NCBI GenBank assembly: GCA_045540355.1
Contig: JAZQHB010000008.1
Location: forward strand, 31,183 to 95,182
DNA length: 64,000 bases
Direction of reading: 5' to 3'
Source: Acutalibacteraceae bacterium
GTDB lineage: Bacteria > Bacillota > Clostridia > Oscillospirales > Acutalibacteraceae
Positions 1 to 49,216 of this stretch are shown piece by piece. A model generated the notes under the pieces. That model worked only from the letters and a program-made list of their open reading frames with translations. It made no database searches and was not told where the DNA came from. Both the position numbers and the translations under genes were made by a program. Each line of letters starts with the position of its first letter. Position 1 is the stretch's first letter.

Positions 1-729
1 ACCTTTTGAAATCGGTTCCGGTGTGCCGTCCTCTGAAACAATCATAGTAAGGGCTGTATTGATTTCATCAGCAATCCTTTTCTGTACTTCTTTACTCTCT
101 CCTGCAATGTTCTGCATTGTGGTCCAAGGCACCAAACGCTTTTCAACAAGTTCCTGCAATTCGGGAATAAGGGAAAGTAACTTCAAATAACGATGCACAT
201 TCATTTTGGTATAACCAAAATCGTGTGCCAACTGTTCAACGACACTAAACTCTTTACTTTTCTTTGTATTCACACCGTCAATACCGTGTTCCATTTGGAT
301 AGTCTGTTTATGGTATTCCATAGCTCTCGCCCAGTCCATAGGTGACATATTACGGTTATTGATGTTTGAAAAAATCAATTTACGGCGTACTATTACTTCT
401 TCGTCGGGCATTTCCACCACTACGGCGGGTACTGTCTTCCAACCCAAAGAACGAACTGCTCTCGTTCTTCTGTGTCCGGCAGATAATTCATATCTTCCGT
501 CGGGTTTCTGATATACTTCTACTACACCGAAGAAACCTTCGTTTTTAATGGTTTCTGCTAATCGGTCAATATCTTCCATATTGAAGATTTCCGCATTATC
601 GGGATTTTCGTCAATCAAATTCAAGTCCAAGTCAATCGTAGGACGGGAATTAGCCTGTGTAACCGCTTTTTTCTGAATACTCTTTAACATATCCGCATTG
701 GGGGATTTGTTTGGATTAAATTTAGCCAT
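1..729 (-). CDS. parB: ParB/Spo0J-family partition protein (C-terminus cut by window edge)
   Basis: Own minus-strand translation from ATG 729: MAKFNPNKSPNADMLKSIQ...EGFFGVVEVYQKPDGRYELSAGHRRTRAVRSLGW (ParB-box GHRR). Start overlaps the parA stop. Absent from the ORF track because there is no stop in the window. Confidence 0.85.
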   Translation of the reverse strand, partial: MAKFNPNKSPNADMLKSIQKKAVTQANSRPTIDLDLNLIDENPDNAEIFNMEDIDRLAETIKNEGFFGVVEVYQKPDGRYELSAGHRRTRAVRSLGWKTVPAVVVEMPDEEVIVRRKLIFSNINNRNMSPMDWARAMEYHKQTIQMEHGIDGVNTKKSKEFSVVEQLAHDFGYTKMNVHRYLKLLSLIPELQELVEKRLVPWTTMQNIAGESKEVQKRIADEINTALTMIVSEDGTPEPISKG

Positions 730-1519
730 TCTTTCGCATCTCCTTCATCATAATTTTCTTTTCAATCTCTCTTGATAAATCTTCATACTGGGTAACAATC
801 GGATTATTTCCCGTATAATAGGGAAGCGGTGTACCAGTAAATCGTGCCTGCTCTACAACACTTCCTGCCTTAATACTGTGAGAAAACACCATATCTTCCA
901 TATTTTCTCTTGCAGATGCCAAAATCATTTTCTGCACGGCTCTCTGATGAATAACATTATTAAAGAGAATACCTAAAATTTCAAGGTGGGTGTTAAGTCC
1001 CTGCTCTCTAATCTGCGAAATATGGTCCATAAGGTAATTAAAACCTGCCAAACTGTCTGTATCAGCCATTGCAGGAACGATAACGAAGTCTGATGCAATC
1101 AAAGCCGATAACGCCACACCGTTTAAATGGGGCGGTAAGTCGAAAAAGCAATAATCAAACTCACTTTCCAACGGCTCTAATGCTTTTGAAACGGCTTTGT
1201 AATCGTCCAACTCCATAGTATCAATATCTAATGCAGAAGGAACAACATACAATTCTCTTTCATCAAGACCGCCGGGCGTATCTTTATATACTCTCTCGAT
1301 TACATCTCTTATAGGTACATTATCTTCGATCACATCTTTAAGACTATGCCCTTTTCGGTTCGGAGTGTATGTAAGCAGATATTCCGTTGCAGTTGTTTGG
1401 CTATCACAATCTACAATCAGTATTTTTCTATTTCGTTTTTCAAAAGTGGCTGATAAATTCACAACGGAAGTTGTTTTACCCGTACCACCCTTGCGGTTAA
1501 AAAAAGCTATCTTTTTCAT
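722..1519 (-). CDS. parA: ParA/Soj-type partition ATPase
   Basis: Deviant Walker A FFNRKGGTGKTT at the N-terminus; 265 aa; immediately upstream of parB. Confidence 0.93.
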   Translation of the reverse strand: MKKIAFFNRKGGTGKTTSVVNLSATFEKRNRKILIVDCDSQTTATEYLLTYTPNRKGHSLKDVIEDNVPIRDVIERVYKDTPGGLDERELYVVPSALDIDTMELDDYKAVSKALEPLESEFDYCFFDLPPHLNGVALSALIASDFVIVPAMADTDSLAGFNYLMDHISQIREQGLNTHLEILGILFNNVIHQRAVQKMILASARENMEDMVFSHSIKAGSVVEQARFTGTPLPYYTGNNPIVTQYEDLSREIEKKIMMKEMRKNG

Positions 1520-1759: not shown

Positions 1760-2725
1760 ATGAGCAAATTAAGATTTAAGGTAGGTATTGATGTAGGTAA
1801 CTACGACACAAAGACACAGCATACCAGCACACCCAGTTCCTATAAGAGTTACGAGAAGAGAAACTTGATGCTGGACGAATATGTGTATTACAACGGAATG
1901 TACTACTCTCCCACGAATGAAAGAAACAATCAGCAGGTAGATAAGACCAAGGATAATTACTGCTTGATTATTTCTCTTTTTGCAATCGCCAAGGAGATTT
2001 TATTCCAGTTAAGACAGAAATACCCTCACGCAACCGACGCAGAGTTGCAGAACTACATCGAACAGATTGAAGAATTAAGCATTGGTGTTGGTCTTCCCGC
2101 CGGATATTTTTCACAGTTAGCAGAAAGCACAAGAAATCTGTATCTGAAAGAATGGGAAAACGGATTTGAATTTGAATACTGCGGATTTACATTCAGTCAC
2201 AGATTAGTGACTTGTGCCGTATTACCGCAGGATTTTACCGCAGTAGCTTGGAATGATAATGTTTCAATCATTAAGGATTTCTCAAAATACATTATTATCG
2301 GTATCGGTGGCGGTACAGCTGATGCTATCCCCGTGGAGAACGGAACTCCGCAGGTAAATAACTGCATCAGCATCGCAAAGGGAACAACCGTTATGTTTTC
2401 AGAGATTATTAAGACAATCCAGCACGAAACAGCAAAAACAATGGAATATTCTACCGTAGAAGCAGTTTTATTAGGAAAACCCACCATTGTCGATGATGCA
2501 AGAAAGGCTCGTATCAAGAAACTGGCAGAAGAATTTGCCGATAAGCTGGTAGACGATTTTATGCACAACGGATTAAACTTCTCCGACAATCCCGTTGTAT
2601 TCATCGGTGGCGGTGCATTACTTATGAGAAAGGCATTGGAAAAGAACCCGAACTTTGTAAAGGTTGAATTTGTGGAAGATGTCAACGCAAACGCGAAGTA
2701 TTTTGCCGTTTTCTGCTCACAGTAA
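1760..2725 (+). CDS. parM: ParM/StbA actin-like plasmid segregation ATPase
   Basis: Actin-fold motifs GIDVGNYDTK, IGIGGGTAD and VFIGGGALL. Start moved to ATG 1760, which lies behind AAGGAGG. Confidence 0.85.
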   Translation: MSKLRFKVGIDVGNYDTKTQHTSTPSSYKSYEKRNLMLDEYVYYNGMYYSPTNERNNQQVDKTKDNYCLIISLFAIAKEILFQLRQKYPHATDAELQNYIEQIEELSIGVGLPAGYFSQLAESTRNLYLKEWENGFEFEYCGFTFSHRLVTCAVLPQDFTAVAWNDNVSIIKDFSKYIIIGIGGGTADAIPVENGTPQVNNCISIAKGTTVMFSEIIKTIQHETAKTMEYSTVEAVLLGKPTIVDDARKARIKKLAEEFADKLVDDFMHNGLNFSDNPVVFIGGGALLMRKALEKNPNFVKVEFVEDVNANAKYFAVFCSQ

Positions 2726-2740
2726 GGCAGGTGGTAATCT

Positions 2741-3235
2741 ATGAGTGAAAAGGTAAGAATACAATTAGGCTACGATCCCACGGACGAAACAACGCAAAGG
2801 GCGGTTATTATGCTTGAAAGTGCTATGCGAAGTAAATCACAGCTGGTAGCCCTTGCCTTATGCGAATTTGCTGATAAATACGGTTTTCGGATTGATAATA
2901 CAGAAGAAATCAAGACCGTTATTAAAAATTATGACTATTTAAGCAGGGCAATGGATATGGCGGTGCCGACAGAAAGAGTTTTGGCACCCTCTACTCCTAC
3001 TCCGACTTATCAGAGGACAGAAAAACCGAAGAAACCGGAAAGACAGACTGAAAAAGCAAAAAGTAACAAAATGTTACTTTATGAAGAACCGTCTGCAAAG
3101 GAAGAGGTTGCAGAGGAAATTCCCGCATCTGACACTCCCAAAGCTGTTGATTTAGGTTTGGAAGAAGACATTGTGGTATCAGAAAAGGCAATGATGTCAA
3201 TGAATAATGTACTTGCAATGTTCTCGCAAGGGTAA
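2741..3235 (+). CDS. Putative ParR-like adaptor (ribbon-helix-helix-like N-terminus, low-complexity tail)
   Basis: Lies directly downstream of parM, as in type II par loci. The N-terminus VRIQLGYDP...AVIMLESAM is compatible with an RHH fold. No sequence motif proves this. Confidence 0.4.
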   Translation: MSEKVRIQLGYDPTDETTQRAVIMLESAMRSKSQLVALALCEFADKYGFRIDNTEEIKTVIKNYDYLSRAMDMAVPTERVLAPSTPTPTYQRTEKPKKPERQTEKAKSNKMLLYEEPSAKEEVAEEIPASDTPKAVDLGLEEDIVVSEKAMMSMNNVLAMFSQG

Positions 3236-3355: not shown

Positions 3356-3850
3356 ATGAAAAACTTACAACTGAATAAGAAAAGACAGTATTTTGCGATG
3401 TTCGCACTTATGCTTATGTTTGCAATGACTATCACAAGCGTTCTCCCGGCGACAATTACGCCTGCTTATGCAACAGACGGAACAGTTCAAACGCAGGAGG
3501 GAAAAAATGATGATATTCCCGATACAAGCGGGACGGCAGGAAACAACGCAGGAAACAACGCAGGAATAAACAGCGGTGTCACAGGTGGCGATTATTCAAT
3601 GGACGCATTAGCAGGGAAAGCAGAAACCACACTTGACGGTTGGAAAGGTAGCATAGTTCGTATCTGTTTTGCTGTTTTTCCGATAGCCTTAATTATATGT
3701 TTAGCAGTTCTCTTCTTCACTCACGACGAAAGAAAGATTGCAACAACCGTAAAAATCTGCATTACCATTTGTATTGTAGCATTGATTATTCTTCTCGTAG
3801 AAAGAGATGTTGTTGAAAATATTATCAGAAATTTAGCAAACGAAATATAA
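3356..3850 (+). CDS. Exported membrane protein with signal peptide and two C-terminal TM helices (VirB2/TrbC-like topology only)
   Basis: SD GAAAGGAG. Signal-like N-terminus, (AGNN)n low-complexity stretch, then two hydrophobic helices. First gene of the T4SS cluster. Confidence 0.55.
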   Translation: MKNLQLNKKRQYFAMFALMLMFAMTITSVLPATITPAYATDGTVQTQEGKNDDIPDTSGTAGNNAGNNAGINSGVTGGDYSMDALAGKAETTLDGWKGSIVRICFAVFPIALIICLAVLFFTHDERKIATTVKICITICIVALIILLVERDVVENIIRNLANEI

Positions 3851-19171: not shown

Positions 19172-19196
19172 ATAAAGTAACAAATTGTTATTTTAT
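19172..19196. promoter_or_regulatory. Dispersed palindrome O1 (ATAAAGTAACAAATTGTTATTTTAT)
   Basis: One of six near-identical copies; lies in the divergent intergenic region upstream of prgI-virB4. Confidence 0.6.
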
Positions 19197-19715: not shown

Positions 19716-22251
19716 AGTAAGTGTTCTCGGCAATGTCTTTGGGAAACTCAATAAGAAAGAGGAACAGCAACTCCACTTCGCCCAAGATATGATTGATGTA
19801 GAGGATATTGTAGCAGGACTTATTTTTACCAAAAGCGGTTCCGTGGTTAAAATCCTTGAAGTCCTACCACTTAACTTTACGGAAAAAGACGATTTTACAA
19901 AAGATATGATTGCAGATGCGTTTGGTTACGGATTAAAGCGTGGACCAAAAAACGCCCACATTAAAGTAATGCGTTCTCAATCCGACATCTCTCCTTTTAT
20001 CCGAAATGTCAGAGATGCTATGGCTGATGAAACCGACGAGAATTTAAGATTGCGTGTAGAAGATTATTTAAAGCACACACAACATCTGCAAGAGAGAAAT
20101 ACCCGTAAAAACCGTTTCTTCTATATCTTTGAATATGAAGGCGATGAAAACGGAAAGAAAAGTGCTGACTGGGACGAAGTATATACAAATATGAGGCAGA
20201 TTACCTACTCGGTTGCTACTGCCTTGCAATCGACTGGAAACTATGTTATTGACTACGCCTTAACGGGCGACAACATTTCCATTGCAGAAATATTGTACTC
20301 ACACTTCAATCCGAAGACTTCAAAAAAAGAACCGTTCAGCGAAAGACAGCGTAAGGTTATTGAAGCAATCAATTACATCAACCGGACAGAAGGCACTAAC
20401 ATATCGGCACCGTTGGAGGATTACTTGGCACCGAGAGGCTTACGCTTTGGCAAATGGGATTATGCGGTAATGGACGGTATGTATCACACTTACCTTTCCT
20501 TGTCAGACGAAAGTTTCCCGAAAGTAAGCTATGCAGGATTATTCACACAAAACCTTATGGAAGGCTTGGACGACTGCGATTTAGATATTTATTACAAGGA
20601 AAAGCCCCGCGAGATGTCGTTACGATTACTGGAAAGAACGGGAACCATATCGCGAGGCGTTGCACTCAATTATATCGGCGACAATCAGAAGCAGGAAAAT
20701 TTGCACAGCACATCAAGTAATGCGGAATACATAAGGGCAAGAATGAAAGACGGCGAAGAAGAACTGTATGATGTTTCCATTATTTTAACGATGCGTGCAA
20801 ATACACTGACAGAGTTAAGGGAAATGAAAAAGACCTACTTGCGTAATAAAAGGTCTGACAACTGTTCTTTTGAAAGTTGCTTTATGAAGACGCAGGAATA
20901 TTGGAAAATGGTTACTCCCACAATGAGTATCAATCAGCAGATATTTAGGGAAAACGCCCGCAATATGACAAACGACGGACTGGCAAATCTTTATTGCTTT
21001 AACTCTTACGAGATGTTTGATCCTGCGGGTGCTTGTATGGGTAAGACCGTAAAAGAAGACACACTCTTCTCTCTTAATAACTTCGATACCGCTAAATTCC
21101 CGAACCCGCATATATTCATAGCAGGTACTTCGGGTGCAGGTAAAACCTTTACGGAACTGATGCTGACAAGCCGTATGCGTATGCACGGTAGCCGTATTGT
21201 ATATATCTTACCGTTGAAAGGACACGAATATAAAGATGCCGTTCTTTCAATCGGTGGCGAATTTATATCTCTTCGCCCCGGCGGTAACAACTGTATTAAC
21301 ATTATGGAAATCAGACCGGAAGGCAGTGCAAAACTGGACGGATTAGACGATGCGGAAATCGCGGAAGAATTGGCAAAGATGCCTTCACTGCTCTCCAAGA
21401 AGATAACCAGTATCATCACTTGGTTACGATTACTTGTCGGCGAAGAAGACAGATTAACCGTAGAAGAAGTCGGAGAAATAAATGCTCTCTTGCAGGAGTT
21501 ATACGGAAACTTTGGCATCACGGAAGACAACAACTCCATTTGGCAGAACAAACAGAAAGGCATCTTAAAGCGTATGCCTATCATCGAAGATATGTATAAC
21601 GCAATGCTATCTAATGAACTGCTCTCCCGCCGTACTCCCGTCTTAAAGACTTGGGTATTCGGTAACTGCAAGAATATGAACCAGCAGACAAATGTTGATA
21701 TGACAAAGAAAGCGATTGCTTTCGATATTAACGAAGATTACATCGGCGAAGAATTACTCCCTGCATTTATGTATATCGCTTTCGATGCGGGATATGACAT
21801 CTGCAAGGAAGACGAATACGAAACCTGCGTAATCGCACTGGACGAAATTTGGAAGCTGTTGCAAATCTCTGCTTGTGCAAAACAGATTGACAAAATGATT
21901 AGAATACTTCGTGCGTATGGTGCGTCGGCAATTACTGCCACACAGGATATTGATAAGTGCCTTGAAAATGAGTTTGGTAAATCCATTCTCCAAAACTCGG
22001 CAATCAAGATATTCCTTAATGTCACCAAAGAAGAAATGGAGGTATTGGAAAAATCCGTTACCTTTACAGAAGAAAACAAACAAAATCTTCTCAACGCACC
22101 GAAGGGTATCGGCTTCGTAACCTACAAGTCGGAAAAAGTATTTGTTCGATTTATTGCGTCAGAATACGAAGAAGAACTCTACACTACCGACATCAATAAG
22201 AAGCGTGAGTTAAGACAACGGCGTATGAATAAGCGTACCGCATACGCATAA
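19615..22251 (+). CDS. virB4: VirB4-family T4SS ATPase
   Basis: 878 aa. Walker A FIAGTSGAGKTF; Walker B-like VIALDEIW. SD AGGAGG 10 nt before ATG 19615. Confidence 0.9.
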   Translation: MLENTKKSQTKKTGLEQLRQLVQSKTSENSSDSKVSVLGNVFGKLNKKEEQQLHFAQDMIDVEDIVAGLIFTKSGSVVKILEVLPLNFTEKDDFTKDMIADAFGYGLKRGPKNAHIKVMRSQSDISPFIRNVRDAMADETDENLRLRVEDYLKHTQHLQERNTRKNRFFYIFEYEGDENGKKSADWDEVYTNMRQITYSVATALQSTGNYVIDYALTGDNISIAEILYSHFNPKTSKKEPFSERQRKVIEAINYINRTEGTNISAPLEDYLAPRGLRFGKWDYAVMDGMYHTYLSLSDESFPKVSYAGLFTQNLMEGLDDCDLDIYYKEKPREMSLRLLERTGTISRGVALNYIGDNQKQENLHSTSSNAEYIRARMKDGEEELYDVSIILTMRANTLTELREMKKTYLRNKRSDNCSFESCFMKTQEYWKMVTPTMSINQQIFRENARNMTNDGLANLYCFNSYEMFDPAGACMGKTVKEDTLFSLNNFDTAKFPNPHIFIAGTSGAGKTFTELMLTSRMRMHGSRIVYILPLKGHEYKDAVLSIGGEFISLRPGGNNCINIMEIRPEGSAKLDGLDDAEIAEELAKMPSLLSKKITSIITWLRLLVGEEDRLTVEEVGEINALLQELYGNFGITEDNNSIWQNKQKGILKRMPIIEDMYNAMLSNELLSRRTPVLKTWVFGNCKNMNQQTNVDMTKKAIAFDINEDYIGEELLPAFMYIAFDAGYDICKEDEYETCVIALDEIWKLLQISACAKQIDKMIRILRAYGASAITATQDIDKCLENEFGKSILQNSAIKIFLNVTKEEMEVLEKSVTFTEENKQNLLNAPKGIGFVTYKSEKVFVRFIASEYEEELYTTDINKKRELRQRRMNKRTAYA

Positions 22252-22269
22252 ATACTCTTTATTATTACA

Positions 22270-22416
22270 TAAACACTCTATAAGTAGACAAAAGCACTTA
22301 ATAAGTCTTACTTAACACTCATTCACAAGTAATAAGCACTCATTAAATGCAATTATCTACTCTTATATCAACTTAAAACACTACTTACATAACCGTAAGC
22401 ACTACTTGAAAGGAGT
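22270..22416 (+). repeat. Seven tandem 21-bp phased repeats (core tAAgCACTcaTT)
   Basis: CACT cores at 22274, 22295, 22316, 22337, (TACT 22358), 22379 and 22400, an exact 21-bp register running into the SD of 22422. Confidence 0.85.
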
Positions 22417-22421
22417 TCTAT

Positions 22422-26739: not shown

Positions 26740-26888
26740 TTGCAATCAGATATAAAATATGCTAATATAATCCTATGAACAAGATATATTCTTATTATAC
26801 TCTTGTTTCATACTTACCTTGATGCTTATAAGAAGTAAGCATTTCCTTTCTACACCTACAAGGATTGCCAACCTTGTAGGTGTTTTTT
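26740..26888 (+). ncRNA. Promoter (TTGCAA-N17-TAATAT) plus about 115-nt three-hairpin terminated transcript; sRNA candidate
   Basis: Hairpins ATGAACAAGA..TCTTGTTTCAT and ATGCTTA..TAAGCAT. Terminator ACACCTACAAGG..CCTTGTAGGTGTTTTTT. No SD-preceded ORF. Confidence 0.4.
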
Positions 26889-26894
26889 ATTCCC

Positions 26895-26919
26895 ATAAAG
26901 TAACAATTTGTTATTTTAT
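26895..26919. promoter_or_regulatory. Dispersed palindrome O2 (ATAAAGTAACAATTTGTTATTTTAT)
   Basis: Seen in sequence. Confidence 0.6.
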
Positions 26920-26981
26920 GTCCTATGCCATATCTCTTATATGTGGGTATAAGACACCACAAAATATCTTTTACTCTATCC

Positions 26982-27006
26982 ATAAAGTAACAAATTGTTA
27001 TTTTAT
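26982..27006. promoter_or_regulatory. Dispersed palindrome O3 (identical to O1)
   Basis: Seen in sequence, 87 bp from O2. Confidence 0.6.
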
Positions 27007-27052
27007 TAAATAAGTGCATTAAGTAAATTTTATTATCTCTTTCACATCTCAT

Positions 27053-29247: not shown

Positions 29248-29436
29248 TTGCAATTTTCTTCATTAAGTGCTATGATAAGGTCAAGAACTGGCGGGAGTTC
29301 TTTTCGGTATATTGGCAAATGCCAGTGTGCCTCCTTTCTTAAAGTTGAGAAACTTTATTTTGACAGCAAAAAGTTGTTGTTTGTTACAGTTACAATAAGA
29401 CCAAACCTTTCCCGCAGGATTGGTCTTCTTTTTTTA
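29248..29436 (+). promoter_or_regulatory. Promoter-leader-terminator module, copy H (ORF-less)
   Basis: TTGCAA-N17-TATGAT. Contains GACAGCAAAAAG. Terminator AAGACCAA..TTGGTCTTCTTTTTTT. Confidence 0.5.
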
Positions 29437-29458
29437 AAATAACAATTTGTTACTTTAT
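29436..29458. promoter_or_regulatory. Dispersed palindrome O4 (AAAATAACAATTTGTTACTTTAT, inverted orientation)
   Basis: Seen in sequence between modules H and I. Confidence 0.6.
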
Positions 29459-31655: not shown

Positions 31656-31678
31656 AAAATAACAAATTGTTACTTTAA
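31656..31678. promoter_or_regulatory. Dispersed palindrome O5 (AAAATAACAAATTGTTACTTTAA)
   Basis: Seen in sequence, abutting a TATAAT box (31650-31655), upstream of recG. Confidence 0.6.
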
Positions 31679-33952: not shown

Positions 33953-34019
33953 TAAAATTCATATTATAATTCCGAAACCCACAAACCCAGTATTTTCTAG
34001 GGCTTGCGGGTTTTTTTGA

Positions 34020-34800
34020 CGGAAAAAATCGGTAAAAGATACGGAGTAGCGTGGTAAAAGATGCGGAGTAGTGCGGTAAAAGATACAGAGTAATTCGGTA
34101 AAATTTGGCAGGATTAAATACGGAGTAGTGCGGTAAAAGATACGGAGTAATTCGGTAAAAGATACGGAGTAGCGCGGTAAAAGATACGGAACAATTCGGT
34201 AAAATAGACGATTTAGCGGAAAAAAACAGTAAAAACAGCAATTAAAAAATAAGTGCTGAAATCGTAAGATTTTGAAAAGAATGTAAAAAAAGGGTAAAGG
34301 TACGGAAAAAATCGGTAAAAGATACAGAGAAAAACAGTAAAAGATACGGAATAATTCGGTAAAAATAGGGTTTATTACGGAGTAATTCGGTAAAAAACGC
34401 AGGAAAAACACCATATGATTACCCAAAAACTACATAAAAATAAAAAAAAGAGATAGAAAAAGCCTTACTTACGGAGAAATTCAGTAAAAGATGCGGAGTA
34501 ATTCGGTAAATATATGATTTATAACGGAGAAAATCGGTAAACATAATGTAGAAATATTCCTTGAAAAAAGTAAAGTTAATGAGCCAAAGTATTGTATTAC
34601 CGAAAATATCCGCTATAAAATCGTAAGTTTTTGAAAAAATCAATATTTAGTGTTTTTATAATTTCAACACATACAAAATAAGAAAAATCCCCCACCTTTT
34701 TAACGGAAAAAAACAGTAAAATAGTAATTGACAAGGTATAATAGTAAGCCTTATAATAAAATTGTTTTTAACGGAAAAAAACAGTAAAAAGCAAATGAGG
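34020..34800 (+). repeat. Iteron array (at least 15 copies of CGGTAAAAGATACGGAGTAnnn, 22-bp phase); putative theta-type oriV
   Basis: GGTAAAAG cores at 34031, 34053, 34075, 34097, 34132, 34154, 34176, 34198, 34314, 34336, 34358, 34389, 34483, 34505 and 34536. Degenerate copies flank the rep promoter. Confidence 0.85.
34700..34790 (+). promoter_or_regulatory. rep promoter (TTGACA-N17-TATAAT) bracketed by a direct repeat TTAACGGAAAAAAACAGTAAAA
   Basis: Seen in sequence; the arrangement is typical of Rep autoregulation. Confidence 0.6.
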
Positions 34801-34811
34801 GGATTACAAAA

Positions 34812-36032
34812 GTGGAAGAAAACAAAAAAAATGAGGAAGATACTTCTTTGGCGATTTATGTTGAAAAAGAAGATATAGTTGCAAAAATATGCAATGTTAT
34901 ATTAAAAGCAAAATATAAAACAACGCTATTGGAACAAAAAGTTTTACTTATGTCGCTTGCCCGTATCAGTAATTATAAAATAGAAAAAGGAACCGGGGCA
35001 TTAGTATCTACGCTTGATGTTGCTGATATAAAAAATTGTATCGGAAGAAAAGGAAACTCATTATATGATGAATTGGAAGAAGTAGCCGATAATATGACAG
35101 ACCGCAAAATTGCATTTTCGGATCCCGAAAAAAAAGAGTTTGATTATATGTCGCTTATCATTCGTGCAACTTGTAAAAACGGTAAATTTAAGATTTATTA
35201 TAATCCGTATTTAAGAAATTACATATTAGACATCACTACTAACTATACACCACTTATGGAAAAGATAACAATGTCTTTTAATAGCCTTCATTCGTCCCTG
35301 CTTTATCAAGCATTAAAGCAAAAAGCATATACACCGGGCGAAAAGATTGATAAAACAAGTTTTGAAATAAGAACTTATGAGTTCGAGTACAATCTTGCGG
35401 AACTTTTACTGGACCTTGGATTAGTTGATGCAAATGCAGAAGAGGTAAAAAATATACTTAATAAATCAAAGACACCGGACTACGAAAAAGCTGTGGCAGT
35501 TGCAAAAGAAAAAAAATATAAAGCGTGGTATGATTTTGAAAGATATTCACTTCGTCCGGCAATTAAAGAAATCAATGAAAAAACAGATTTGCGGGTATCA
35601 TACGAAACCATAAAAAGAGGTAGAGGGGGAAAAATAACCGCATTATTATTTACAGTAGATGTAATACCTACGATAAGAACCGATTTACTCTCAAAAAAAG
35701 AGGAAGAAGTAATCACGATAACCGAAGACCAAAAAGACGAATACATAGACTGGTTATCAGACCTTATCGAAACGCCGTTAAAAGTGAAAGACCTGCGTAC
35801 TATCGCAGAAGAGGCAGGATATTCGCAGGAGAAAGCAGAAAAAGCCTACGCCATATTAAAATCCACTCCGCAGGTTGATAATGTGGTAGGATTTATGATT
35901 TCGGCGATCCGTAACAATTATTCCAGTTCCGGCGGGCAAAGCAATAAGGAAAGCAAAAAGAGCGCAAACGATAACATAATGAAGCAAGATTATGATATTG
36001 AAGCAATCGAAAAGGATATTTTGGCAAATTAG
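34812..36032 (+). CDS. rep: Plasmid replication initiator (Rep_3/RepB-like)
   Basis: Immediately downstream of the iterons. N-terminal KAKYKTTLLEQKVLLMSLARI resembles initiator winged-helix proteins. GTG start behind GAGGGG. Confidence 0.7.
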   Translation: MEENKKNEEDTSLAIYVEKEDIVAKICNVILKAKYKTTLLEQKVLLMSLARISNYKIEKGTGALVSTLDVADIKNCIGRKGNSLYDELEEVADNMTDRKIAFSDPEKKEFDYMSLIIRATCKNGKFKIYYNPYLRNYILDITTNYTPLMEKITMSFNSLHSSLLYQALKQKAYTPGEKIDKTSFEIRTYEFEYNLAELLLDLGLVDANAEEVKNILNKSKTPDYEKAVAVAKEKKYKAWYDFERYSLRPAIKEINEKTDLRVSYETIKRGRGGKITALLFTVDVIPTIRTDLLSKKEEEVITITEDQKDEYIDWLSDLIETPLKVKDLRTIAEEAGYSQEKAEKAYAILKSTPQVDNVVGFMISAIRNNYSSSGGQSNKESKKSANDNIMKQDYDIEAIEKDILAN

Positions 36033-46813: not shown

Positions 46814-46907
46814 AATCATTCTCCTTTGGCTTTGTATTTATGTATATTATACTTTGACGACATAAAGAAATCAAATTTTTAGGAATACAAGTGCAGAAGT
46901 TAAAAAT

Positions 46908-46936
46908 TTGCATAAAAAAGTATACTATCGTATAAT
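46908..46936 (+). promoter_or_regulatory. Promoter TTGCAT-N17-TATAAT for the helicase operon
   Basis: Seen in sequence. Confidence 0.6.
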
Positions 46937-46962: not shown

Positions 46963-46986
46963 ATAAAGTAACAAATTGTTACTTTT
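46963..46986. promoter_or_regulatory. Dispersed palindrome O6 (ATAAAGTAACAAATTGTTACTTTT, best-symmetric copy)
   Basis: Located in the 5' UTR between the promoter and ATG 47012. Confidence 0.65.
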
Positions 46987-47011
46987 CAGCATTAAGAAAG
47001 GAAAAAATATT

Positions 47012-49216
47012 ATGGCAGAAGCCTTGGAGTGCGTATACGAAAAAACCATATATCAGCGTGAACAAAACGATGTAACCATAGCTTTGTATCACACTACTGG
47101 AAAAAGCGTAATTGTGACTGGTTCGATGCTTCCGATTGCAAAGAAAGTAAAGTATGTATTTTACGGAGAATGGGTAAATCACCCGAAATACGGCAAGCAG
47201 TTTAAAATGACGGAAGGATATGATACTGCAAAACCCTCGACAAAAGAGAGTATCAAGGAATACTTGGCAAGCGGTACCATAAGAGGCATCGGACAGAAGA
47301 CCGCAGAACGCATTGTTGAAATGTTCGGCGATGAAACATTAGATGTTATGGAAAAGGATATTTTCCGTCTTTTAAAAGTAAAAGGGCTTACAAAGAATAA
47401 GATTGAAAAAATCAAAACTTCATTCGATGAAAATTTTGCTGGCAGGGAAACCATTGTGTTATTAGGGAAAAAAGGTATCTCTCCAAAGATTGCAAGTAAG
47501 GTCTATCAGAAGTTTAAAGATAAGGCAGTTAAGATTATTGAGGAACAGCCTTACCGTTTATGTATGGTACCGGGAATTACATTTCCCGTTGCAGACAGCC
47601 TTGGACCGCAGACGGAAGCCTATGAATTAAATTATGACCGTTTTTTTATCTGTGCAAATTATGTACTGGCAGAGAATGAAAATAATGGAATGAAAGATTA
47701 TATCGGAAATCGCACCGCAGGAAGTTTATCAATGACGGTGCAGGATTTCGGCAATGCAATGTTATCTCTTCTGCGAATGAAGAGTATAACTGGGGCGAAA
47801 GTTTGTGAATATACCATTAAGGCTATCAAAAACGGACACTTAAAAATGCTTACCGATAATGGCGTGCAGTATATTTATCGTCCCGGTGTTTATCGTATTG
47901 AAAAAAGACTGGCAGAAAATATTGCAAGACTGACAAGAAAAGAATTGTCAACAGCAGTTGAGAATATTGATGCCTATATTGCAAAAGCAGAGAATGAATT
48001 AAAAATTTCTCTATCAGAAGAACAGAGGCAGGCGGTTCTTAATGCGTTCCAAAATAATTTATCTTTGATTATTGGACCGCCGGGAACCGGAAAGACCACT
48101 GTAATACAGGTTATTGTTTATATTTTTAAGGAATTAAACGATAAACCGCAGATTACTTTGCTGGCACCCACTGGTAGAGCCTCAAAGAGAATTACGGAAA
48201 CAACGAATATGGACGCATACACCATTCACAGCTGTTTAGGTCTTCACACAGAGCAGATTAACGATGTGAATGACGAAGAAGAGTTTAAGATTGAAGAAGG
48301 TCTTATTGTTGTAGACGAAATGAGTATGCTTGATACAAGAGTAGCTTATCAGCTGTTTGCAAGCATTAGAAAAAGATGCAAAATTATTTTATGTGGCGAC
48401 GATGATCAGTTACAGAGCGTAGGTGCGGGTGCAGTATTAAGAGATATGATTACTTCGGGAGTATTGCCCGTTACCACATTAAAGAATATCTATCGGCAGG
48501 ACGCACAGAGTTTGGTGTATCGTAATTCCCATAATATCCGCGAAGGTAAATTTGAGTTAGAGTATGGCGACGACTTTATGATGTATGAAACCGATGATAC
48601 TGCGGATATGGAAGAACAAATGATTGCGATGTATTTGCAGAAAATCAAAGAATACGGTATGGAGAATGTAATGCTGTTATCGCCTTTCAAGGAACACGAT
48701 GCAGGCGTTTACAATTTGAACTCCCGTATTCAGAAGGCGTTAAATCCCGACGACAAGAAAGAATATCAAGGAAATGGCAAGACTTTCCGCACGGGAGATT
48801 TGGTAATGCAGTTAAAGAACAACGAAACGCAGGCAAATGGCGATATTGGCGTGGTAACTGCCATTCATAAAAGGGACGGCGAACAGATTGTATGTGTAAA
48901 GTTTGAAAAAGCCCGCAGGGATTACTTTGATGAAGAAGCCGGGGAAGAATTAAACTTGGCATACGCCTATACCGTACATAAAGCACAAGGTAGTGAAGCA
49001 AAGTGTGTTATTACTTGTATGCACGATATGCACTCGGTAATGCGGAAGCGTAATATCTTTTATACTGCTGTTACAAGAGCAAAGCAGGAAGTAATTGTAT
49101 TCGGACAGAAGAGAGCCGTAGTAAAGGCAATTCAGACTGCCGATAAATCAAAGCGTAATACCGGACTGAAACAGATGTTAAAGCAAGAGTGTGGCTGTTG
49201 GAGTGAAATAAATTAA
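47012..49216 (+). CDS. recD2: RecD2/TraA-family SF1B DNA helicase
   Basis: HhH segment RGIGQKTAERIV; Walker A IIGPPGTGKTT; VVDEMSMLD; C-terminal YAYTVHKAQGSE. Start moved to ATG 47012. Confidence 0.88.
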   Translation: MAEALECVYEKTIYQREQNDVTIALYHTTGKSVIVTGSMLPIAKKVKYVFYGEWVNHPKYGKQFKMTEGYDTAKPSTKESIKEYLASGTIRGIGQKTAERIVEMFGDETLDVMEKDIFRLLKVKGLTKNKIEKIKTSFDENFAGRETIVLLGKKGISPKIASKVYQKFKDKAVKIIEEQPYRLCMVPGITFPVADSLGPQTEAYELNYDRFFICANYVLAENENNGMKDYIGNRTAGSLSMTVQDFGNAMLSLLRMKSITGAKVCEYTIKAIKNGHLKMLTDNGVQYIYRPGVYRIEKRLAENIARLTRKELSTAVENIDAYIAKAENELKISLSEEQRQAVLNAFQNNLSLIIGPPGTGKTTVIQVIVYIFKELNDKPQITLLAPTGRASKRITETTNMDAYTIHSCLGLHTEQINDVNDEEEFKIEEGLIVVDEMSMLDTRVAYQLFASIRKRCKIILCGDDDQLQSVGAGAVLRDMITSGVLPVTTLKNIYRQDAQSLVYRNSHNIREGKFELEYGDDFMMYETDDTADMEEQMIAMYLQKIKEYGMENVMLLSPFKEHDAGVYNLNSRIQKALNPDDKKEYQGNGKTFRTGDLVMQLKNNETQANGDIGVVTAIHKRDGEQIVCVKFEKARRDYFDEEAGEELNLAYAYTVHKAQGSEAKCVITCMHDMHSVMRKRNIFYTAVTRAKQEVIVFGQKRAVVKAIQTADKSKRNTGLKQMLKQECGCWSEIN

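Follow-up and report, generated by a model that had tools for sequence, protein, structure and literature searches.

The IncP-1 plasmid RK2 carries 12 copies of the operator OB (TTTAGC-S-GCTAAA), an odd-centred palindrome, and the linear plasmid-prophage N15 has four dispersed centromere palindromes for SopB that also affect gene expression. The species specificity of the P1 and P7 ParB–parS pairs involves a change in recognition helix and half-site, of the same kind as that between ParB and Noc. In ParB/Noc specificity switching, few substitutions in or near the recognition helix go with a change of 1–2 bp per half-site (Jalal et al., 2020; PMC7383237). KorB, which acts on OB in RK2, is a ParB-family protein with roles in both partition and regulation (PMC11790492, PMC13768133), and the conjugative IncC/IncA plasmids have multiple parS sites, experimentally verified as bound by ParB, extra copies of which cause incompatibility (PMC10954446). 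Here, a family of seven dispersed palindromes is described in a stretch of 64,000 nucleotides (hereafter, the window; bases 31183–95182 of contig JAZQHB010000008.1, or C8, in assembly GCA_045540355.1), which is part of a conjugative plasmid. Comparison with a sister plasmid indicates that the palindromes very probably serve some plasmid-encoded, sequence-specific protein, and the plasmid-encoded ParB is favoured, with some confidence, as their cognate binder.

The palindromes have a 21-bp core with the consensus AAARTAACAA-N-TTGTTAYTTT (Table 1), which a one-sided flank lengthens to ATAAA...TTTAT. Six copies had been listed in a preliminary description of the window, and every one is present where it had been placed; the pattern search of the plasmid and its relatives that the description had proposed yielded a seventh copy and a matched variant in the sister plasmid. 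The architecture of two 10-bp arms around a single base was also borne out, but only the copy at 46965 is perfect, and the five others in that list each have a single transition (R/Y at position 4 or 18). That the copies are always intergenic holds for six of the seven and fails for 3060–3080, which is inside a conserved gene (2741–3235). Six sites are non-coding; the open reading frames (ORFs) that overlap sites (26795–27052 and 29248–29442) are not conserved as proteins in the sister plasmid. With about 88% of the window in ORFs, the placement of at least six of seven sites in non-coding DNA has P ~2e-5. In 100 dinucleotide-preserving shuffles, a control that had likewise been proposed, 0.01–0.03 copies are expected, compared with the seven observed.

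The palindrome belongs to this plasmid alone, because a search of the whole 3.1-Mb assembly with up to four mismatches gave no credible copy beyond the seven (only four unrelated 4-mismatch strings), and a search of 300 genomes of the same family gave two single 1-mismatch matches, equal to the reversed-pattern control. Scans with the exact 21-mer pattern in genome contigs (85 loci) and viral contigs (5 loci) returned single unrelated matches, many of them from Microcoleus, and none in multiple copies. A related string in the parB coding sequence, GTAACA-ACATC-TGTTAC (C8 30959–30975; GTAACA-N5-TGTTAC, 223 bp before the start of the window), has a 5-bp spacer and no AAA/TTT flanks; it was not accepted as a site and is probably coincidental.

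Homologues of the ParB are rare, forming 36 clusters among 5.8 billion proteins. A search of 400 genomes of the host family did not detect the protein, and a metagenome scan with the ParB alignment gave eight loci, mostly distant, with none from the close subgroup. The closest homologues (70–71% identity) are encoded on syntenic plasmid contigs from public metagenome runs. The sister plasmid (relA) is a Logan SRR18763217 contig of 52 kb, of which 49.5 kb was recovered by walking with protein look-ups. It also has seven palindromes, with the consensus ACARAGTATCA-W3-TGATACYTTGT, and six of these are orthologous in position to the window sites 3060, 19174, 26897/26984, 29436, and 31656. In the alignment of the two plasmids, the flanking terminators and promoters match well and the palindrome itself is swapped. 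The half-site is GTAACA in the window and GTATCA in the sister plasmid, a difference of one bp per half-site that is mirrored in the other arm: position 4 is A in 14/14 half-sites in the former and T in 14/14 in the latter. The outer flanks of the palindromes differ between the two plasmids as well. Two relatives, L104 and L127, have a T-type site inside the ParR-like gene; in the relatives, this orthologous in-gene site is GTATCAAAATGATAC, and the encoded peptide is changed from SNKMLLY to SIKMIPC.

Because the positions are conserved and the symmetric change is present at every site, a single dimeric, sequence-specific protein that changed specificity together with its sites is suggested; read in this way, the concerted switch marks a co-evolving dimeric DNA-binding protein. 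REP/RAYT elements, dif/res sites, and replication terminators were dropped as explanations, given that the sites are positionally orthologous between the plasmids, symmetric, and present in seven copies per replicon. A hybrid in-gene site, GTAACAAAATGATAC, was seen in a further relative (L128; Logan SRR17049901 contig, 1398–1412), the contig of which is too short to include its ParB. One arm of this site is of the window type and the other of the sister type, and the site could represent an intermediate in evolution or be in decay.

Three conserved candidates for the DNA-binding protein are common to both plasmids: ParB, a ParR-like protein, and an XRE/RstR-like protein that is encoded outside the window. 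ParA and ParM are 93% and 91% identical, respectively, between the two plasmids, and ParB is 70% identical. Among the 21 substitutions within ParB residues 1–250 that are common to both T-type ParBs, seven (K159M, E160S, F161V, S162N, L167V, T174K, and M176A) are located in the helix-turn-helix (residues 159–176). By alignment, T174 corresponds to S172 of Caulobacter ParB and K175 to R173; S172 contacts parS and R173 is a specificity residue (PMC7383237). As in ParB/Noc switching, a small set of changes (T174K, M176A) accompanies GTAACA to GTATCA; here, however, this is a correlation between two natural plasmid types, and the residues are not the four defined for ParB/Noc.

The ParB matches Pfam ParB_N (1.7e-14), HTH_ParB (7e-4), and TIGR00180 (3.7e-19), its best PDB relatives are Noc, Spo0J, ParB, and KorB, and its arginine patch (GxxRxxA) is GHRRTRA. 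The plasmid has the parts of a ParABS system: a ParB with a CTPase-type domain and a helix-turn-helix, a Walker-type ParA in the same operon, and replicon-specific palindromes. The canonical 16-bp parS, TGTTNCACGTGAAACA, does not occur on the plasmid with up to two mismatches, and the host chromosome has two perfect copies. The palindrome family is the only candidate centromere for ParB, and, because the plasmid is without canonical parS, the plasmid and host ParB–parS systems should be orthogonal. The half-site GTAACAA/TTGTTAC fits GTnnCAn, with G(-7), T(-6), C(-3), and A(-2) in register with GTTTCAC of parS, and one extra base pair is present at the dyad; the palindrome is therefore best described as a variant, parS-like candidate site and not as a canonical parS. 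Chromosomal ParB–parS systems of the Spo0J type share with this one the dispersal of several single palindromes around the origin, a ParB that combines a helix-turn-helix with an arginine-patch ParB_N domain, and an adjacent ParA. They differ in having an 8+8 dyad instead of 7-1-7 and two to three other bases per half-site, and the conserved flanks here extend the element to 21–27 bp.

Plasmids of cultured Butyrivibrio provide a wider comparison. A tblastn search of PLSDB with the ParB gave pCY186 only (NC_014390.1; Butyrivibrio proteoclasticus B316), which encodes a 35% identical ParB (WP_013283210.1) of the GHRR type and has rep, parM, the ParR-like gene, the C39 peptidase, the lepB-like/XRE pair, and parAB in common with the present backbone. 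pCY186 has eight perfect copies and one near copy of GTTCAC-N-GTGAAC (13 bp), versus 0.3 in shuffles; 6/9 are intergenic, and a stretch of 86 kb (82–168 kb) is free of them. No description of this palindrome was found in the literature searched. The B. fibrisolvens plasmid pNP243 (NZ_CP146964.1) encodes a 30% identical ParB with a GHRR arginine-patch variant and has palindromes of the type GGCCAC-S-GTGGCC. Three of these are clustered directly upstream of parAB (3637–3808) and share TGAAGG...CCTTCA flanks, and a fourth (39490) is located 36 kb away in a convergent intergenic gap. The region upstream of parAB in pNP243 also holds TGAAACA-N4-TGTTTCA. No XRE or ParM homologue is detectable in pNP243, with both queries matching pCY186 as positive controls. 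The four motif types are all odd-centred and all have C(-3) and A(-2). By association only, this links the odd-centred architecture with the ParB lineage rather than with either of its rivals.

TABLE 1. Palindromes of the window, their counterparts on related plasmids, and associated genes and elements (window coordinates unless another record is named).
Feature	Position	Strand	Description
Palindrome copy 1	3060–3080		AAAGTAACAAAATGTTACTTT, one mismatch; missed in the preliminary description; within the ParR-like gene, in a linker that is poorly conserved and predicted to be disordered
Palindrome copy 2	19174–19194		Between the divergent CAP/SH3 gene and prgI-virB4 operon and between their promoters; ~75 bp upstream of the prgI promoter -35
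Palindrome copy 3	26897–26917		Close behind the virD4 terminator, within the gap that separates virD4 from the convergent RNase H gene
Palindrome copy 4	26984–27004		87 bp from copy 3, in the same virD4/RNase H convergent-terminator gap
Palindrome copy 5	29436–29456		Immediately follows a terminator; the -35 (29470) of the promoter for the MBL (ComEC-like) gene is 13 bp downstream
Palindrome copy 6	31656–31676		Flanked by two terminator-like hairpins; 48 bp upstream of the recG promoter -35 (31725)
Palindrome copy 7	46965–46985		5' untranslated region of recD2, ~+22 to +42 from promoter 46907–46936; the only perfect copy
Sister orthologue of 19174 site	Sister plasmid record, 20433		Variant palindrome
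Sister orthologues of 26897/26984 sites	Sister plasmid record, 12721/12674		Paired site
Sister orthologue of 29436 site	Sister plasmid record, 10240		Conserved flanks
Sister orthologue of 31656 site	Sister plasmid record, 8007		Conserved flanks
pCY186 palindromes	NC_014390.1: 1420, 17466, 31267, 36160, 47723, 72473, 81132, 168240, 177478		
parB	1–729	-	3' end outside the window; full protein 372 aa, C8 30793–31911
parA	722–1519	-	Walker-type partition ATPase; overlaps the parB start; matches AAA_31/CbiA and ParA_partition
parM	1760–2725	+	Actin-like segregation ATPase of a second (type II) partition system; divergent from parAB
ParR-like adaptor gene	2741–3235	+	Ribbon–helix–helix (RHH)-like N-terminus, disordered linker with copy 1, conserved C-terminal helix; rival binder
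Box array	22251–22420	+	Eight A(A/G)CACTC boxes with 21-bp phasing, in the interval from virB4 to the following operon
Replication origin	33997–36032	+	22-bp iterons 33997–34790; Rep3 initiator 34812–36032

With respect to transcription signals, one of the seven sites is in a 5' untranslated region, three are 13–75 bp upstream of a -35 element, two are between convergent terminators, and one is within a gene; most do not overlap -35 or -10 elements. At the copy at 46965–46985, the order of a promoter (TTTGCA-18-TATAAT, 46907–46936), the palindrome, and the RecD2 ATG (~47013) is as the preliminary description had it. That description took the family for the operator set of a plasmid-wide regulator, and this reading stands in part: the palindromes have the properties of a set of sites for a single plasmid-specific, sequence-specific DNA-binding protein. 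Most of them are nevertheless unlikely to be classical operators, given the lack of overlap with core promoter elements at most sites and the placement of those at 26897 and 26984, which have no promoter in their vicinity and are enclosed by the converging terminators of virD4 and RNase H. Use as a centromere or for clamp loading, perhaps with effects at a distance or as a roadblock, is the better fit, in particular for these two sites.

Of the two analogies put forward at the outset, that to a KorB-type ParB best fits the comparative evidence. As on RK2, a ParB-family protein is encoded beside a small Walker ParA, and the sites are spread over the backbone, some beside promoters and some far from any; the dual role in partition and regulation is what is proposed here by analogy. 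There are also differences. The present plasmid is Gram-positive (Lachnospiraceae), and its ParB is closer to Noc/Spo0J, with a KorB match in the N-terminal domain only (E 1.5e-6). A KorA/TrbA-like clamp-locking partner or a second operator type was not identified, no systematic search for homologues having been made, and repression is putative. IncC/IncA resembles the present case in having several sites on a conjugative plasmid and in offering incompatibility as a selective reason for specificity switching, but its ParB lineage, host phylum, and motif are unrelated, and the sites described here are predictions from sequence. In N15 as well, single palindromic sites are scattered over functionally different regions, with side effects on transcription, but that system is an F-type SopAB (type Ia) of an enterobacterial host and has no sequence relationship to this one.

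Several points weigh against ParB as the binder. The palindrome type tracks the substitutions in the ParB helix-turn-helix, but co-variation over only two specificity types cannot single out ParB, as the two other candidates differ too: 11 of the first 88 residues of the XRE protein, a segment that includes its helix-turn-helix region, are substituted, and the ParR-like protein has G11S in a putative DNA-contacting β strand. The parAB promoter region has no site, and 1.5 kb separate it from the nearest one, in the adjacent parMR operon. At 21–27 bp, the conserved element is longer than the 16-bp parS, and its odd spacing is unlike that of canonical parS. One of the pCY186 palindromes is located in the promoter region common to the XRE gene and its divergent neighbour, which would suit an autoregulating XRE repressor. 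In the distant relatives L114, L115, and L123 (ParB 44–52% identical), no recurrent palindrome was found within 10 kb of parB; a single GTTTCA-AAA-TGAAAC in L115 looks like a terminator stem and was set aside. Finally, where canonical Box III reads ENLQR, this ParB has SNINNR, with serine in place of the glutamate, and CTP hydrolysis by this ParB may for this reason differ from that of canonical ParB.

The palindromes might instead be the operators of the XRE-family (RstR-like) protein (C8 26029–26799; 256 aa), acting in the style of a phage repressor with heteroimmunity-like divergence. This is unlikely, even though the protein is conserved in both plasmids and pCY186, differs between the palindrome types, and has the pCY186 site at the divergent promoter of its homologue; moreover, XRE dimers typically bind palindromes, and concerted switches of operator and repressor are typical of immunity repressors. 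The promoter region of the XRE gene, otherwise conserved, is free of the palindrome in both plasmids, with the nearest site 7.4 kb away. Most sites are off core promoter elements, the half-site resembles parS, and pNP243 has odd-centred palindromes upstream of parAB but no XRE homologue. It is quite improbable that the family is a parC-like centromere of the type II system, bound by the RHH ParR-like protein and coupled to ParM filaments. A site inside the ParR-like gene itself in four plasmids, the RHH-like N-terminus and ParR-like layout of the protein, and the association of G11S with palindrome type speak for this, as does the ability of RHH tetramers to bind palindromic operators of 21 bp, that of Arc for example. 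Only the secondary structure was used from the AlphaFold2 model of the ParR-like protein, which is of low confidence (pLDDT 52). However, the N-terminal 72 residues of the protein are almost identical between the types (five changes, one of them in the strand), and pNP243 lacks ParM yet has analogous palindromes. Type II centromeres are clustered direct repeats, usually at the parMR promoter, whereas the palindromes are single and dispersed; to our knowledge, ParR proteins bind such clustered repeats and not dispersed single palindromes. The separate array of 21-bp-phased boxes at 22251–22420 and a TAAGCACTC box upstream of the parM promoter (1665–1673) are conserved in the sister plasmid without the switch, which fits ParR/parC as usually known better. 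The array, which is outside the palindrome family, is the likelier centromere for the ParR-like protein; it is likely to be the parC of the ParM/ParR-like system or a relaxosome platform.

That the palindromes act as hairpins in RNA or single-stranded DNA (processing signals or conjugative-transfer structures) and not as duplex sites is highly improbable. The compensatory A-to-T and T-to-A change would preserve pairing, the one departure from symmetry in each of five copies gives a G-T (G-U) pair on one of the strands, and hairpins of -7 to -10 kcal/mol are predicted for some copies; but two copies fold no better than shuffles on the + strand (-2 to -3 kcal/mol), and the strand compatible with wobble pairing varies among sites. 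Independent hairpins would drift apart, and the uniformity of all 14 half-sites in each plasmid calls for a common sequence-specific reader. In addition, sites are located beyond terminators on both sides, and none has an Rfam match. The second analogy of the preliminary description, SOS-type boxes of host LexA or a LexA-like repressor that control adjacent DNA-repair genes, was rejected as having almost no chance of being correct. It had drawn on neighbours that include recG, recD2, RNase H, and the MBL nuclease-like gene, and on a superficial AAC/GTT likeness to the LexA box. The layout is TAAC-N5-GTTA, not of the GAAC-N4-GTTC or CGAAC-N4-GTTCG type, and no LexA-like protein is found among the plasmid proteins scanned. 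The absence of copies from the 3.1-Mb host genome, with the 300 related genomes at control level, shows that this is not a host regulon, and a conserved host LexA would not allow a concerted switch between sister plasmids in the same kind of host.

If ParB is the binder, each of the seven sites would nucleate or load a ParB dimer, which, by analogy with ParB, Noc, and KorB, would close as a CTP-dependent clamp and spread or slide locally. Several partition complexes could then form in the origin-proximal part of the plasmid and be acted on by ParA, so that the seven sites together would make up a dispersed centromere of the ParA/ParB system. Given the non-coding bias and the promoter-adjacent positions, a KorB-like regulatory side effect is possible: ParB loaded near the promoters of recD2, the MBL gene, recG, and CAP/prgI-virB4 may also damp transcription, as KorB does on RK2, with a roadblock in the recD2 leader as the clearest putative case. 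Both the use of CTP with sliding and any regulatory effect are inferred from these analogies. Selection against partition incompatibility, which is known to arise when replicons share parS copies (PMC10954446), is the simplest explanation for the specificity switch between the sister plasmids. A broader proposal, which we regard as doubtful although conceivable, is that this ParB is a Gram-positive counterpart of KorB. It would be a CTP-gated clamp at seven odd-centred sites that segregates the plasmid and, from between promoter–terminator cassettes, sets the expression of the type IV secretion system (T4SS) and of recG, recD2, and the MBL gene. The GTAACA-to-GTATCA switch with T174K and M176A would then create separate incompatibility-and-regulation groups, with related plasmids coexisting in one gut host.

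The large conjugative plasmids of Lachnospiraceae from gut and rumen have hardly been studied, and for one family of them the palindromes supply a defined sequence as candidate centromere and candidate regulatory site. The natural specificity pair GTAACA/GTATCA, together with a short list of ParB residues, provides a handle on the evolution of ParB–parS specificity and incompatibility, and an odd-centred parS variant with half-sites one bp further apart would show how a plasmid ParB stays orthogonal to that of its host. pCY186 of B. proteoclasticus B316, with the same backbone and a dispersed palindrome of its own, is a cultivable entry point. As dispersed ParB-family sites are already known on plasmids (RK2, IncC), this would be an extension of the principle and not a new mechanism.

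The first and last 141 bases of C8 (105,178 bp) are identical, and C8 is therefore a circular, complete replicon of ~105,037 bp: a conjugative plasmid of about 105 kb with ParAB, ParM/ParR-like proteins, Rep3 with iterons, and a T4SS. The genes had been correctly identified in the preliminary description (ParB, ParA, PrgI-like, VirB4, VirD4, RNase H, MBL-fold, RecG, and RecD2). The seven palindromes span -31 to +13 kb around the iterons, that is, the origin-proximal 44 kb of the 105-kb plasmid. A megablast search of PLSDB with 20 kb of the window gave no match, and the window contains no Rfam or tRNA matches. The most diverged conserved backbone protein is encoded by a 164-aa ORF (3356–3850) after the ParR-like gene; it has 43% identity to its sister-plasmid counterpart (neighbours, 66–93%) and matches no family. 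Two RecD2-like helicase genes are present on the plasmid. One, at C8 20194–21744 and outside the window, shares 92% identity with the copy in the sister plasmid and is orthologous to it. The other, in the window (46976–49216), is the one whose leader contains the palindrome, and its identity to the sister copy is only 35%. The -10-like element TATAAT forms the centre of a second palindrome family, (T/A)GTATAATATAC(A/T), which has 21 strand-matches at up to two mismatches versus 3.9 in shuffles. It is found in the window at 1712, 3271, 12386, 19265, 29628, 40898, 46841, 54142, and 59393, recurs in relatives at the promoters of parM and prgI, and may be either a signature of promoters or another type of operator.

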